Shown here: piece by piece, positions 6,919-19,268 of the stretch | Numbering within the stretch: the first letter of the stretch is position 1 | Layout of the letters: the number at the start of each line of letters is the position of its first letter | Made by a program: the position numbers and the translations under genes | NCBI GenBank assembly: GCA_900768845.1 | Contig: CAAGEK010000024.1 | Location: forward strand, 3,001-67,000 | Reading direction: 5' to 3' | From: Alphaproteobacteria bacterium | GTDB taxonomy: Bacteria; Pseudomonadota; Alphaproteobacteria; CAAGCB01; CAG-977 | Length of the DNA: 64,000 nucleotides | The notes under the pieces: generated by a model | What the model saw: only the letters and a program-made list of their open reading frames with translations | Told to the model about the DNA's origin: nothing | Databases searched by the model: none

Positions 6919-7701
6919 TATTGCGCCATCATGTACAAGGCGCGTGATTCCGGAAATCTTACGACTATGCACGGAAAAAACACTTTTGCTTTAATGCAAC
7001 GGATCCGGTGAAGCGGCGGGCTGTAGCCAAAGGAGTACGCAATAGGAAAGGAAGCGGAAGTGTGTCCGGATTTATGGGCTTTCTGAAAGGGAAAATCAGT
7101 CGAAAATACATAAGCAGGGAATTCCGGTATGAAGGGTGTTATGCGGATACGGTCGGAATATCCGACGTCAATCGGGAGAAGACGCCGCATCAGACCAAAT
7201 GACGCCGGACATATCGGATGCGGTTCGGATTGCGTCAGGCATTTCAATCCGGAGATTGACAAGCGCAACGAAATCAGAATCAAAGGGGCGACGCAAAACG
7301 AGGTTGACGACTCAATTCATCGTTTCTTTTCCGAAGAGGTGCTATCTGTCCGCCCGTCAGACCGAAGCTTTTATGGACGAGTTTATACGTCCGTATCGGG
7401 AAAAGGGCGCGAAGTATTTTATCGCCGTTCACACGGAACAGGGAAGCCGCTCCCAATGCCCGCAACGAGATCGCTCCGTATGGCTTCCCCATTAGCTTGT
7501 CTTCGCATCAATATCGAAGCCGCATGGCGCAAAGTCGATAACCTGATAAAAGCGGAAATAAGGAGGGCTTTCCCTCTTTTCATTTTTAACCATACGCCGA
7601 ACAACGCCTTTATTATCATAAAATAATTTTTAGTAATCTGTCCTACACGCTTGACAAAGAAAAAATATCCCGTACATTCTGTGTCGTATGGAGGGTTGTT
7701 T

Positions 7702-8268
7702 ATGAAATTTTTCAATTTATTCGAGATTCGTTCCGGCGTCCCGATCCGTCAGGCGTATGAAAAAATGGCGGCAGGAGGAACGCCGGTCATTGTTCCGAAA
7801 GTCGTGGATATTCAAAAGGGAATCGACTATTCGCAAATTAAGGGATTGGATATGGCGTTTAAGCCTGTTCATCTTTTAGAGGGCGGAGAGATTCTTTTTT
7901 GTACCAAAGGAACGATAAAAGCGGCCGTCTATGAAAAACAAGAACGGGCTCATATCGCTTCGTCCGCTTTTTTGGTGCTGACGCCGAAAGTAAAGGTTTA
8001 TTCTGCATATATAGCGGCGTTTTTAAATTCGGAAATGATGCGGGAAAATTACCGTTCGGCGACAAACGGAGCAACCATTCCCTCTTTGCCGATCAGCTAC
8101 GTTCAGAACATAAACATCACTCTTCCTTCTTTGGAAAAGCAACGGTTCGCGGTAGACTTGTTGAGCCTTTATAACAAAAAACTGGCTTTACTGAATCGAC
8201 AGGCGGAATTGGAAAACAGCGTAAAAAACGCATTATTGAAAAAGATTTTTACCGGAGGCTGGGCATGA
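7702..8268 (+). CDS. hsdS: Type I restriction-modification specificity subunit, short single-TRD form
   Basis: 188 aa from ATG 7702 (GGAGGG ribosome-binding site). It has one target-recognition domain plus the conserved C-terminal helix (LPSLEKQRFAVDLLSLYNKKLALLNRQAELENSVKNALLKKIF). The stop overlaps the hsdM start as ATGA. Confidence 0.7.
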   Translation: MKFFNLFEIRSGVPIRQAYEKMAAGGTPVIVPKVVDIQKGIDYSQIKGLDMAFKPVHLLEGGEILFCTKGTIKAAVYEKQERAHIASSAFLVLTPKVKVYSAYIAAFLNSEMMRENYRSATNGATIPSLPISYVQNINITLPSLEKQRFAVDLLSLYNKKLALLNRQAELENSVKNALLKKIFTGGWA

Positions 8269-9770
8269 CAAACAAAACTGATGAAAAACAAACAAAATTG
8301 AACAATTTGCTGTGGAGTGCCGCTGACGCCGCACGTTCGCATATCGACGCTTCCGTTTTTAAAGACTACATTCTGGTTTTGCTGTTTTTAAAATATCTGT
8401 CTGAGTTGTCAAAAAAGGAAGCGGCGGCATTAAAAGAACGCTACGGCGCGGATGAAGCGGCTCTGGAACGCCGATTGAAAGCGGGACGTTTTTATTTGCC
8501 GAAAGGGGCGTCTTTTGACGAACTGTATGAGCAAAGAACGCAGGACGATTTCGGCGTGCTGATCAATCAGGCTTTGCACAAAATCGAAGATGAAAACAAA
8601 TCGAAACTGGAAAACATTTTCCAATCCGTTGATTTCAACAGCGAAGCGGTTTTGGGAAAGAAAAACAAACGTAATCCGATGTTGGTCGGGCTGTTTGAAG
8701 TTTTTAAATCCGCTGATTTGGATGTTTCGGATCAAGATGTCGTCGGCAACGCGTATATGTATCTGATAGAACGTTTCGGTTCGGACGCGGGTAAGAAAGC
8801 CGGAGAGTTCTTCACGCCGGCGGTGGTGTCCGGATTATTGGCAAAATTAGGCGGAGCGAAAGACGGATACAGGATTTTGGATCCGGCATGCGGTTCCGGC
8901 GGTTTGCTCTTGTTGGCGGGGCACGAAGTCGCTTCCGGAAATTATGCCCTTTTCGGTCAGGAAAGTGTCGGAACGACATATAATATGGCGCGGATGAATA
9001 TGTTTATGCATGGGAAGGATTCTGCGGAAATCGAATGGGGGGACAGCTTGCGCGATCCCGCTTTTGTAGAGTCGGATCGTTTGAAGCAGTTTGATTTAGT
9101 CTTGGCTAATCCGCCGTTTTCGTTGGACAACTGGGGCTTTGACGATCTGCAAAATGACAAATACGCCCGCTTTATGCGTGGTATGCCGCCCAAATCAAAA
9201 GGGGACTACGCTTTTATTTCCCATATGATCGCATCGGCAAAAGAATTTACGGGACGGGTTGCCGTCATCGTGCCGCACGGTGTTTTATTCCGCGGCAGTT
9301 CGGAAGGGCGCATACGGCGGGCGTTGATTGAAGAAAATCTGCTTGACGCCGTGATCGGACTGCCGAAAGGACTGTTTCAGACGACCGACATTCCGGTGGC
9401 GATTTTGATTTTTGACAAGTCAAGGCAGGAAGGCGGTGAAAATCAGGCTCGCAAGGATATAGTGTTCATAGACGCGTCCAATGAATACATCAGCGGCAAG
9501 AAGCAGAACACGTTATCGGACGGGCATATCGAAAAAATTCTGACGACGTATCGGGAACGCAAAGAAATCGAAAAATACTCCCACGTCGCGACGCCGGAAG
9601 AAATCAGTGAAAACGACTATAACCTGAACATTCCGCGCTATGTCGATACGTTTGAGGAGGAAGCGGAAATCGATTTGCACGCGGTGAAATCGGAAATTCA
9701 AAAGATTGAAACCGAACTGGCGGCGGTTCAAAAGCAAATGGACGCGTATTTGAAAGAATTGGGGCTGTGA
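8265..9770 (+). CDS. hsdM: Type I restriction-modification N6-adenine DNA methyltransferase subunit
   Basis: 501 aa. N-terminal HsdM_N region, AdoMet motif I (ILDPACGSGGLLL) and catalytic motif IV (LANPPFSL). Confidence 0.9.
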   Translation: MTNKTDEKQTKLNNLLWSAADAARSHIDASVFKDYILVLLFLKYLSELSKKEAAALKERYGADEAALERRLKAGRFYLPKGASFDELYEQRTQDDFGVLINQALHKIEDENKSKLENIFQSVDFNSEAVLGKKNKRNPMLVGLFEVFKSADLDVSDQDVVGNAYMYLIERFGSDAGKKAGEFFTPAVVSGLLAKLGGAKDGYRILDPACGSGGLLLLAGHEVASGNYALFGQESVGTTYNMARMNMFMHGKDSAEIEWGDSLRDPAFVESDRLKQFDLVLANPPFSLDNWGFDDLQNDKYARFMRGMPPKSKGDYAFISHMIASAKEFTGRVAVIVPHGVLFRGSSEGRIRRALIEENLLDAVIGLPKGLFQTTDIPVAILIFDKSRQEGGENQARKDIVFIDASNEYISGKKQNTLSDGHIEKILTTYRERKEIEKYSHVATPEEISENDYNLNIPRYVDTFEEEAEIDLHAVKSEIQKIETELAAVQKQMDAYLKELGL

Positions 9771-18322: not shown

Positions 18323-19025
18323 ACAAATATCCGTAGGGCAAAAAATTTATAATTATAACTTGTTGCTGTCTGAACGGAAAACGGCAACGATTTATATTTC
18401 AAACGATGCAAAGATTACTGTAAAAGCTCCGCTCAATGTCAGCATCGGCCGTATAGAAACATTTATCCGGCAAAAAGCAAAGTGGATTGCCGAGCAATTG
18501 GAAGAAGTGGAAAAATACAGGCAAATTTCCGATCGGAACAAATATTTGTCCGGTTCCGCTTTGCTTTATCTGGGGCGACAATACAAAGTCATTGTCAATC
18601 CCGCCCTTGAGCAGGAAAAGGTTCAACTGTTAAAAAACCGGATCGTTATTTTTACGAAACAGAACGTTCAAAACGAAATTCATAACGGATCGCTCGTTAA
18701 GCTTTGGTACGAAAAACGGCAAAAGCGCGTTTTTCGGGAGCGTTTCGCTTTGATTTCCGAGCAATTCCCCGATTTTGAAAATCCGAAACTGGCCGTGATT
18801 AAAATGAAAAACAGATGGGGATGCTATCGTATCAACGGCACGGTCGTTTTAAATCCGGAGCTGATCAAAGCGTCCAAACAATGTATCGACTATGTGCTTT
18901 ATCACGAGTTTTGCCACCATTTTTTCAGAAAACATGATGCGGACTTTTATAAAATGCTTGAAGAAAAAATGCCTGATTGGAAAAAGGTGAAAGAAAAACT
19001 TGAACTGCGATTTACATCAAATTAG
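18312..19025 (+). CDS. YgjP-like DUF45 / M48-family metallopeptidase-like protein
   Basis: 237 aa with HEFCHH (HExxH) near the C-terminus. It overlaps the hsdR stop. This family is frequently the last gene of type I RM operons. Confidence 0.8.
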   Translation: MSDKQISVGQKIYNYNLLLSERKTATIYISNDAKITVKAPLNVSIGRIETFIRQKAKWIAEQLEEVEKYRQISDRNKYLSGSALLYLGRQYKVIVNPALEQEKVQLLKNRIVIFTKQNVQNEIHNGSLVKLWYEKRQKRVFRERFALISEQFPDFENPKLAVIKMKNRWGCYRINGTVVLNPELIKASKQCIDYVLYHEFCHHFFRKHDADFYKMLEEKMPDWKKVKEKLELRFTSN

Positions 19026-19268
19026 TTCCTTTCCGGAACAATTCTTTTTGTGTCGCGTGTTATTTTTGCGGGATTTTCCAATTCCGGAAAAATCGCTTTT
19101 AAATAACCGGTCGGGCATAATCCGGTTTAAATTCATCGTGCCTGACGGAAAAATGCGTCGGGAATGTCCGTAATTATGACAGGAAGTTGCTAAAAACTTT
19201 CTCGTCAAACAAACGGAACGTTTTATCGAATGTTTCGGAATATCGACGCCGGAAGCAAAAACAGGTCA

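Follow-up and report, generated by a model that had tools for sequence, protein, structure and literature searches.

Embedded genes are common in type I restriction-modification (RM) loci, and PDC models, including PDC-S05 and PDC-S23, were defined by such embedding in type I RM, BREX and DISARM loci (bioRxiv 10.1101/2024.01.29.577857). In an RM-DarTG2-M48 island of enteropathogenic Escherichia coli (EPEC), the interval between hsdS and hsdR is a hotspot, and an M48 peptidase follows hsdR (PMC12255303). AbiF proteins are HEPN RNases neutralized by a structured RNA that is encoded directly 5' of the gene (PMC12373285, PMC12737573); the AbiF/AbiFr pairs, such as PbAbiF (PDB 8vz6) and C. difficile AbiF/RCd22, are type III-like toxin-antitoxins and have been proposed as the ancestors of Cas13. 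Here we describe a type I RM locus with a candidate AbiF-like RNA-protein pair next to hsdR, at approximately 6982-19370 of a 64,000-nucleotide stretch (hereinafter, the window) of contig CAAGEK010000024.1, part of a 104.5-kb human-metagenome scaffold of an uncultured bacterium whose closest relatives are metagenome-assembled genomes of gut and rumen Alphaproteobacteria. We consider it quite likely, in an estimate that covers our best explanation of the locus as a whole, that this region was acquired horizontally, as an island that entered between malQ and the type I secretion gene hlyB.

Open reading frame (ORF) calls, combined with Pfam, NCBIfam and PADLOC profile searches of the window proteins, yield nine genes in a row, all on the plus strand: a half-size hsdS, hsdM, rhuM, a fusion of a RhuM N-terminal domain with Doc, a membrane protein gene, a full-length hsdS, an abi gene, hsdR and a YgjP-like peptidase gene. 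Each lies where an earlier sequence-only reading of this DNA had placed it. That reading, which took the locus for a docking site of other defense and toxin genes and proposed a PADLOC search, was essentially right: other candidate defense or toxin genes are embedded in the locus, and PADLOC matches PDC-S05 and PDC-S23. It is not novel, given that the embedding of defense genes in type I RM loci, the hsdS-hsdR hotspot and the terminal M48-type peptidase are already known. The five accessory genes that it counted as embedded are present, but the description has to be amended: RhuM is a truncated chimera, the YgjP-like gene is terminal and a regular partner of hsdR, and the abi gene, rather than a random passenger, is in this lineage fixed as a partner of hsdR.

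As in the loci recovered by guilt-by-embedding (Payne et al. 2024 preprint) and in the EPEC island, with its order RptR-HsdM-HsdS-DarTG2-HsdR-M48 (PMC12255303), an hsdM...hsdR framework encloses cargo between hsdS and hsdR; a metallopeptidase gene following hsdR and a slot that behaves as a recombination hotspot are further points of likeness to the EPEC island, and PDC-S05 and PDC-S23 match the window directly. The locus differs from the EPEC island in having two variable slots and a half-size hsdS ahead of hsdM, and in lacking an RptR-type repressor gene; moreover, the hsdS-hsdR interval is occupied by an AbiF-like pair of RNA and protein, which accompanies hsdR as a fixed neighbor in the relatives instead of being an occasional passenger. 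What is new is in the detail: a subfamily of compact AbiF proteins whose cognate RNA has not been listed before and which is fixed in front of hsdR, a large unannotated membrane protein family that recurs in such loci, and a conserved plan with two hsdS genes and two slots.

Core genes, conserved blocks and variable slots

Judging from the translated genes, the core is an intact type I RM system. The N6-adenine methyltransferase subunit is encoded by hsdM (8265-9770, 501 aa), with HsdM_N (PF12161) and N6_Mtase (PF02384) domains (E 2e-98), a match to PADLOC MTase_I (E 8e-127) and the motifs DPACGSGG and NPPF in the translation. The full-length hsdS (13024-14298, 424 aa) encodes two target recognition domains (TRDs) and matches Methylase_S twice (E 2e-45) and PADLOC Specificity_I (E 5e-80). 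The product of hsdR (15140-18322, 1060 aa) combines HSDR_N, SWI2_SNF2, ResIII and T1R_D3-like regions (PADLOC REase_I, E 1e-120), and its translation shows an N-terminal PD-(D/E)xK nuclease (PDIV...ENK), the Walker A motif GSGKT and DEAH. The domains and motifs of a type I HsdM, a two-TRD HsdS and an HsdR with a nuclease and a superfamily 2 translocase are thus all found. Pseudogenization of the hsd genes, the observation that the sequence-only reading named as speaking against it, is not seen: none of these genes is frameshifted and the catalytic motifs are intact. Among solved enzymes, the system is nearest to type IC, because solved relatives of HsdR are limited to the EcoR124 HsdR chains (E 2e-35), and those of HsdM include the EcoR124 M protein (E 6e-63). 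HsdM with an HsdS subunit would methylate host DNA, and the complex joined by HsdR would translocate and cut unmethylated DNA.

The last gene of the row (18312-19025) encodes a YgjP-like (DUF45/M48-like) zinc metallopeptidase (PF01863, E 2e-46). The gene comes directly after hsdR, the end of which it overlaps by 11 nt, and its product carries the HExxH signature (HEFCH). A YgjP gene lies 3' of hsdR wherever the contig extends that far (L004, L005/L082, L092 and L094-L098; here and below, L numbers denote the loci compared); in L099, this position is taken by an unannotated gene cut by the contig end. An M48 peptidase occupies the same position in the EPEC RM-DarTG island (PMC12255303).

Related loci were found in three ways, via the membrane ORF, via the conserved RNA described below and via homologs of the 214-aa AbiF-like protein. 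Those with HsdM proteins 62-65% identical to that of the window share a plan: half-size hsdS (184-210 aa), hsdM, slot 1, full hsdS, slot 2, the RNA with the compact abi gene (in some loci), hsdR and ygjP. In the window, slot 1 holds the truncated RhuM, the RhuM-Doc fusion and the membrane ORF, and slot 2 is empty. Slot 2 is also empty in L005/L082, where the abi gene is absent and slot 1 contains an N-extended RhuM-Doc, a RhuM fragment with stop codons and a membrane ORF (82%). L083 has an N-terminal fragment of RhuM-Doc (91%), a full RhuM (335 aa) and a Schlafen/AlbA_2 protein in slot 1, and its contig ends at slot 2. L004, in which the abi gene is again absent, has a short RhuM and a membrane ORF (44%) in slot 1 and a 319-aa uncharacterized protein in slot 2, and L095 has a full RhuM and a membrane ORF (82.5%) in slot 1 and a 465-aa uncharacterized protein in slot 2. 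Other cargo is found in L092 (four uncharacterized genes in slot 1, nothing in slot 2, hsdS itself containing a DUF559 insert), L097 (a 171-aa uncharacterized protein in slot 1; 88- and 312-aa ones in slot 2) and L099 (a Bro-N protein and two uncharacterized genes in slot 1, nothing in slot 2). L002 belongs to a different type I family (HsdM 31% identical) and contains RhuM-Doc, the membrane ORF, hsdS, an AAA_15/21 ATPase and hsdR.

Thus, the comparison across related loci that had been proposed as a check on the sequence-only reading shows a constant hsd framework with changing contents between hsdM and hsdR; the subunit genes are interspersed with non-RM genes of the same strand, and the cargo differs among loci with the same framework. 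By the sequence comparison, there are two conserved blocks, one consisting of the half-size hsdS and hsdM, and the other of the RNA, the compact abi gene, hsdR and ygjP, and the two slots on either side of the full hsdS would exchange cargo by recombination. Within this framework, HsdR is only 38-47% identical to its counterpart in every related locus found, compared to 62-65% for HsdM and 52-78% for the Abi protein, suggesting that the window hsdR was replaced or has diverged unusually fast. Such a modular plan, with two blocks, two slots, a variable half-size hsdS and a full hsdS, could serve as a natural system in which to study how cassettes are exchanged and how type I enzymes attain dual specificity.

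The half-size hsdS (7702-8268, 188 aa) encodes one TRD and one long conserved helix (Pfam Methylase_S, PADLOC Specificity_I) and starts at the ATG at 7702, which is preceded by GGAGG; by its ATGA overlap, it is translationally coupled to hsdM. An intact half-size hsdS (184-210 aa) is found directly 5' of hsdM in L004, L005, L083, L092, L095, L097 and L099; in the first three of these loci, its frame overlaps the hsdM start or abuts it with 1-nt spacing. The recognition domain of the window protein is only 24-28% identical to those from L004, L005 and L083, compared to approximately 64% for the HsdM proteins of the same loci, a degree of variability that appears typical of specificity determinants. 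Because the reading frame has been kept at saturated synonymous divergence, the half-size gene is not a dead remnant. Half HsdS subunits can dimerize in type IC enzymes and then recognize a palindromic, symmetric target, according to literature cited in PMC10030836. The half-size HsdS of the window probably also dimerizes, which would provide a second, symmetric specificity, and we infer by this analogy that the system has two specificities. A one-TRD hsdS and a two-TRD hsdS occur in one locus also in Staphylococcus xylosus (hsdS_short and hsdS_long; PMC10030836), and half-HsdS subunits, engineered or natural, are known from the type IC enzymes EcoR124I, EcoDXXI and NgoAV. The S. xylosus short subunit, however, is invariant across strains, whereas the half-size subunit of the window type is highly variable, as expected of a real specificity determinant. 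As a precedent, the conserved S. xylosus protein, which is no specificity half, speaks against two specificities here.

The structured RNA and the compact AbiF-like protein

Between the full-length hsdS and hsdR, a conserved structured RNA element (14366-14436, plus strand), which includes a hairpin at 14378-14422 (45 nt, 17 pairs), precedes the gene for a compact, 214-aa AbiF-like HEPN protein (14480-15124). Positions 14369-14432 of this element, 64 nt in all, share 97% identity with L005 and L083, compared to 35-80% identity of the neighboring genes. A covariance model (R1) built from five copies matched more diverged copies in L092, L097 and L099. Across eight distinct sequences, 96% of the cells of the hairpin are paired and 7 of the 17 pairs show double compensatory changes, as opposed to 0-1 compensatory pairs in control structures slid by 1-3 columns; RNAalifold gives the same structure, and the apical loop and the 3' bulge CAUAGCAC are invariant. 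The distance from the RNA to the abi gene on its 3' side is 50-70 nt in each of the five compact AbiF-like loci that were examined, and each of these abi genes is located directly 5' of hsdR-ygjP.

In the protein, the motifs ExxxRNxxH (53-61) and RNxxxHxE (158-165) are conserved, with R158-N-R-I-A-H163 and E53...R57-N58..H61 invariant in 20 sequences, and the former conforms to the HEPN pattern Rx4-6H; the AbiF fold is found as well and bears out the sub-threshold Abi_2 assignment. A few of the homologs have a precomputed match to PF07751, and a match of the ORF to PD-T4-5 is below threshold. From this likeness to described pairs, we moderately favor the interpretation of the RNA and the 214-aa gene as an AbiF/AbiFr-type pair, with the hairpin as the candidate antitoxin. 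By analogy with PbAbiF/AbiFr and C. difficile AbiF/RCd22, the hairpin RNA would be an antitoxin encoded in cis that holds the AbiF-like RNase in check; upon shut-off of host transcription by a phage or loss of the locus, the RNA would decay and free the RNase, which could then act as an abortive-infection back-up and provide an addiction function tied to hsdR. Compared to PbAbiF, the window protein is smaller (approximately 214 against 300 aa); the RNA is a single hairpin rather than two motifs, has no terminator directly after it and is not recognized by RF03085; and the pair sits in an RM locus, apparently co-transcribed with hsdR.

The position of the gene recalls another RNase. In the EcoprrI (type IC) locus, the gene order is said to be hsdM-hsdS-prrC-hsdR, with prrC encoding an anticodon nuclease that has an N-terminal ABC-type NTPase domain and reportedly is kept latent by the RM proteins. 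The likeness consists in a presumably latent HEPN-type RNase in the same hsdS-hsdR position of a system with a type IC-nearest R subunit; unlike PrrC, the 214-aa protein has no NTPase or P-loop domain and does not qualify as a PrrC family member, and it comes with its own RNA. This comparison suggests that the AbiF-like RNase in the PrrC position may be a back-up that fires when restriction is disabled. A much smaller relative of AbiF with a different, covariation-supported RNA, always located before hsdR, widens the known diversity of such RNA-protein pairs, and the placement before hsdR suggests functional coupling between restriction and an RNA-gated RNase.

Several observations weigh against an AbiF/AbiFr-type pair. 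The score of the 214-aa protein against Pfam Abi_2 (PF07751) is 22.7 bits, under the cutoff of 25.6, and there is no sequence-level match to PbAbiF or the solved structures, even by profile. RF03085, the abiF motif, does not match at E<=10 in window 14250-14520 or in L092 7840-8010, in scans run without an RF03085 positive control, and no Rfam family matches the RNA at gathering score in the window, L092, L095 or L097. The RNA is present as one copy per locus, not as a repeat, and in two Abi-less loci (L005/L082 and L083) it persists as an orphan approximately 45 nt 5' of hsdR, where it could serve hsdR instead. The orphan copies and the missing abiF-motif match lend some weight to an alternative under which the hairpin is no antitoxin but a cis-regulatory 5' leader of the hsdR transcript that tunes or delays HsdR synthesis, for instance, during establishment in a new host, the abi gene having been inserted downstream: the Abi ribosome-binding region was apparently reused for hsdR in the Abi-less loci, and the hairpin forms the left edge of the conserved right-hand block. 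We nevertheless find this alternative unlikely. The hairpin stands immediately 5' of the abi gene in every compact AbiF-like locus, it is known that AbiF proteins require an RNA of this kind (PMC12373285, PMC12737573), a toxin-antitoxin pair would be expected to lose the toxin first and leave the antitoxin as an orphan, and L004, a locus of the same hsdM lineage, has no match to model R1.

Other identities of the element were considered and rejected. It is not a classical type III toxin-antitoxin of the ToxIN, CptIN or TenpIN kind, given the single RNA copy per locus, the lack of a tandem array and the lack of a U-run after the stem; nor is it an intrinsic terminator, there being no U-run adjoining the stem. 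A 66-aa ORF (14295-14495) in the public annotation overlaps the hairpin and is most likely no gene. Both substitutions between the window and L005 are synonymous in its frame; the small protein was rejected in favor of the RNA because the N-terminus is unrelated between loci, there is no Pfam match, and the distant copies contain double substitutions that preserve base pairs. Exact-pattern scans for the RNA found two metagenome contigs, both of the same lineage, and no viral contig. A GTCAAG/GCAAGG motif is located approximately 25-45 nt 3' of the hairpin (window 14440-14470), by the ribosome-binding site, and is kept in the window, L005, L092, L095 and L097; in L005, this leader serves hsdR directly.

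Borders of the island and transcription units

The left border was placed with the help of L084, a contig from another sample whose MalQ is identical and which matches window 3000-6981 at 98.8% identity but is unrelated beyond. Because the identity ends at 6981, the border lies at approximately 6981/6982, just past the malQ terminator (malQ itself occupies 4196-6868). Different cargo occupies the same site in this other strain, which implies that the 3' flank of malQ is an insertion hotspot; in L084 (3987-7387), the site downstream of malQ contains a hexapeptide-repeat acetyltransferase (Hexapep), a DUF5131 protein and others. The sequence-only reading had set the boundary at 7650 and left a gene-poor stretch outside the locus; given the L084 comparison, 6.98-7.65 kb belongs to the island. 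This left arm (6982-7650, plus strand) is not simply gene-poor: besides a terminator-like hairpin (7560-7579), it contains a relaxase (MobA/VirD2) pseudogene fragment at 7289-7447, which matches Pfam Relaxase under the cutoff (E 1e-3, 19.8 bits) and, in tblastn, the L086 relaxase (36% over 53 aa, E 2.7e-8). A 165-aa ORF (7129-7626) in the same arm was rejected as a gene and is probably spurious, having no family match or homologs and overlapping the relaxase relic in another frame. In the nearest relatives of hlyB, a relaxase gene and mobC lie directly 5' of hlyB. The integrated mobilizable element found in this position in L086 (5755-9907) and L087 (2781-6933), with an ArdC-N anti-restriction protein, a Y-family polymerase, MobC and relaxase, agrees with the relaxase relic of the window.

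On the right, the island ends between a terminator-like hairpin with a T-run 3' of ygjP (19025-19039, plus strand) and approximately 19373, where homology to the hlyB of relatives resumes. The hlyB frame opens at 19323, whereas the relatives (709 aa) and the DNA similarity begin at approximately 19374; the true start, judging by this alignment, is probably the later ATG at 19374. An empty site, with malQ adjoining hlyB, was not found: the relatives of hlyB have differing upstream genes, and the sole contig with the left flank ends before the right junction. There is no integrase or tRNA target near the island in the window. Related RM loci adjoin a tyrosine integrase (L005, L097) or sit in a Tn7-like element (L102), and the island is mobile-element cargo. 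L102 (213-12948) is a further RM locus with embedded defense genes carried as transposon cargo, in a Tn7-like element (Mu-transposase C, TniB and two TniQ) with a 315-aa Abi_2 protein, a helix-turn-helix (HTH) protein, hsdM, hsdS, GmrSD and hsdR.

The four start/stop overlaps from which a single operon had been deduced are real: half-size hsdS and hsdM (ATGA), hsdM and rhuM (TGATG), rhuM and rhuM-doc (ATGA), and hsdR and ygjP (the 11-nt overlap). The membrane ORF is followed by the full hsdS after 32 nt that include a ribosome-binding site, and the abi gene by hsdR after a 15-nt gap, whereas an AT-rich gap of 211 nt (11422-11632) precedes the membrane ORF and one of 181 nt (14299-14479) precedes the abi gene. 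The genes accordingly fall into three groups, half-size hsdS/hsdM/rhuM/rhuM-doc, membrane ORF/hsdS and abi/hsdR/ygjP, and the structured RNA, at the left edge of a block conserved separately, falls in the second gap. We therefore do not retain the single operon: with the two gaps separating the groups and the right-hand block passed on as a separate unit, a minimum of two or three transcription units is more likely than one, and the locus is probably transcribed from approximately three promoters. Against three such promoters, promoter-like matches are at the chance level across the region (27 found against 26.1 expected). The promoter-like TTGACA-16-TACATT at 7651-7678 (plus strand, score 10/12), 5' of the half-size hsdS, is thus tentative, a lead only; the TTG at 7651 more likely belongs to a -35 box than represents the start of this gene.

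Cargo of slot 1 and the defense interpretation

The gene following hsdM (9770-10450, plus strand) encodes a truncated, chimeric RhuM (PDC-S05), residues 1-208 of which are RhuM and the last 18 codons of which, GKLRRVGSDKGGKWDVIK, come from another gene. It covers positions 11-223 of the 346 of PADLOC PDC-S05 and 1-155 of the 252 of Pfam PF13310, so that the domain is incomplete; full-length relatives are found in L083 (335 aa, 77% identity over 1-209) and L095 (338 aa). RhuM homology ends at 10393, exactly at the start of a direct repeat, D1, the two copies of which (10393-10442 and 11465-11514, both on the plus strand; 22 nt exact, 50 nt at 76%) flank the gene for the RhuM-N/Doc fusion, the second copy lying 44 nt past its stop. 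Copy 2, which reads ...IKRNLKKLKKAGKLRRVGLDKG..., has no Pfam match and looks like a relic of a putative winged-helix-type C-terminus. Because the RhuM tail begins D1 and copy 2 follows the stop of the fusion, the doc gene is bracketed by two relics of one C-terminal coding segment. L083 shows the reverse order, a Doc fragment followed by a full RhuM. This arrangement suggests that the cargo has been exchanged by recombination that leaves truncated predecessors behind.

The fusion protein itself (10447-11421) combines a RhuM-N (Bro-N-like) region with a Doc-type Fic domain. It is a full-length PDC-S23 protein (E 2e-111 over 4-326 of 327; Pfam RhuM and Fic), and its translation contains HSFSDGNKR, a motif of the HxFxDGNKR type; against TIGR01550 DOC_P1, it scores 35.3 bits, narrowly under the cutoff. 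As a putative Doc-type kinase, it would arrest translation. The Doc motif is shared with phage P1 Doc and Fic-domain toxins; unlike P1 Doc, the window protein carries the N-terminal RhuM/Bro-N-like fusion and there is no Phd-type antitoxin gene adjoining it. Its role as a toxin, and any part in anti-phage defense, is putative.

The remaining gene of slot 1 (11633-12991, plus strand) encodes an uncharacterized membrane protein of 452 aa (458 aa if started from the TTG at 11615 rather than the ATG at 11633) that belongs to no described family: Pfam, NCBIfam and PADLOC contain no matching family, PHROGs not having been searched, and only coiled-coil noise was obtained (JetC, 5e-6; SMC, 6e-4). An alignment of 23 homologs shows a variable N-terminal coiled coil, a two-helix membrane hairpin (approximately 274-296 and 313-331) and a strongly conserved C-terminal domain with the consensus NLSKRLIEEYxHKEVLSKT ... 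SENPGKLITDYNKxDNPLME. A fold search was uninformative: the AF2 model is all-helical (pLDDT 72, pTM 0.33) and has no PDB match at E<=0.001, with generic coiled coils, including PspA/Vipp1, as weak resemblances at E>0.1. In an exhaustive profile search, the family comprised 334 cluster representatives (50%-identity clusters) at E<=1e-30, nearly all of 440-510 aa and from many phyla.

The drop in GC content that had been taken as the mark of a recently acquired cassette is real (0.27-0.33 across 11.6-13.4 kb). The GC content at third codon positions (GC3) of the membrane ORF is 0.20, compared to approximately 0.60 in malQ and hlyB, and is 0.20-0.23 in the window and L005 copies alike, so that, by its base composition, the gene is from an AT-rich source. 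The synonymous divergence (dS) between these two copies is 0.92, whereas hsdM and hsdR are saturated (>2), which implies that the membrane gene was exchanged later than the framework genes and bears out the recent acquisition of an AT-rich cassette. Seven type I RM loci (window, L002, L004, L005, L044, L055 and L095) carry the gene, either embedded or appended, and in five of these it lies directly 5' of the full hsdS, the exceptions being L044 and L055, where it is 3' of hsdS. Across the family, however, only 5 of 80 species-level loci, plus L095 and the window, have it in or directly beside a complete type I system, and no fixed partner gene was found among 79 genome loci. The 150 immediate neighbors include Methylase_S/HsdS (5), N6_Mtase (3), Type ISP (2), Mrr_cat_2 (2), NERD (2), HipA (2) and UvrD-type helicases (4).

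Our best guess for this protein, a tentative one, is a membrane-anchored abortive-infection effector or sensor. It is quite possible, too, though not probable, that it is unrelated to defense, a generic membrane protein of mobile DNA (involved, e.g., in exclusion, envelope stress or membrane remodeling) that merely rides along, as might be expected from the small share of its loci that are next to type I RM systems, the mostly heterogeneous neighborhoods and the weak coiled-coil likeness to PspA/Vipp1. What speaks for defense is the recurrence of RM and defense-type families among its neighbors, which looks far above random, as judged without a formal background test, the seven distinct RM loci with their preferred position 5' of hsdS, and the scattered, partner-less occurrence that is typical of single-gene defense systems (bioRxiv 10.1101/2024.01.29.577857). 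Being large, phylogenetically broad and unannotated, and recurrently embedded in RM loci, the family is a concrete candidate for a new defense gene.

The embedded genes together, the Doc fusion, the AbiF-like RNase and the membrane protein, might alternatively be mainly addiction or stabilization modules, the locus then being a selfish RM element with toxin cargo rather than an anti-phage island. The relaxase relic of the left arm, the integrases beside L005 and L097, the Tn7-like genes beside L102, the visible cargo turnover with its pseudogene relics, and the fact that Doc and AbiF are toxin-antitoxin toxins would all fit; but no Phd-type antitoxin adjoins the Doc fusion, it was specifically their embedding in defense systems that led to the PDC families, and activity against phage has been shown or reported for comparable DarTG2 and AbiF systems embedded in RM loci (PMC12255303, PMC12373285), so we judge it improbable that addiction is the main role, the two roles not being mutually exclusive in any case. 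Outright decay, with an inactive RM system and cargo turning into pseudogenes, seems very improbable: the truncated RhuM, the repeat scars, the relaxase relic and the low identity of HsdR to all its relatives could be taken that way, but the hsd genes, including both hsdS, the Doc fusion, the abi gene and ygjP are full-length with intact catalytic motifs, and translational coupling is kept. The low identity of HsdR does weigh on the interpretation of the locus as an active defense island, since the co-adaptation of HsdR with the window HsdM is presumed only, as does the fact that every functional step beyond domain identity is inferred. A bolder, joint proposal appears doubtful to us: that, in a lineage of type I RM systems, the compact (approximately 215 aa) AbiF subfamily, together with its new class of hairpin RNA, permanently occupies the first position of the hsdR transcript and guards restriction under the control of that RNA, and, at the same time, that the membrane family (at least 334 clusters at 50% identity) constitutes a new anti-phage system of one gene that acts at the membrane and moves as a cassette together with hsdS. 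If the first part held, a HEPN RNase released on shut-down of host transcription or of the restriction module would amount to a PrrC-like back-up made from an AbiF/AbiFr pair.

Among the related loci, some variants of the hsdS genes and their surroundings deserve mention. A phase-variable hsdS shufflon was rejected for the window: the two hsdS genes share no long inverted repeats, and the island contains no recombinase. In L002 (3873-6932, minus strand), 5' of hsdM, several hsdS-like fragments (121 and 256 aa) and two unannotated genes for proteins of approximately 250-270 aa are inverted relative to hsdM-hsdR, and a phase-variable shufflon is possible there. Upstream of the RM locus in L099 (1718-1803), between genes for a 402-aa Abi_2 protein and an HTH protein, there is a sub-threshold match to Rfam sRNA-Xcc1 (35.4 bits against a gathering score of 53, E 0.007). 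Finally, the hsdS of L092 (5907-7853) encodes an unusual fusion, a 648-aa HsdS in which DUF559, a Vsr-like endonuclease, is inserted between the two Methylase_S domains.

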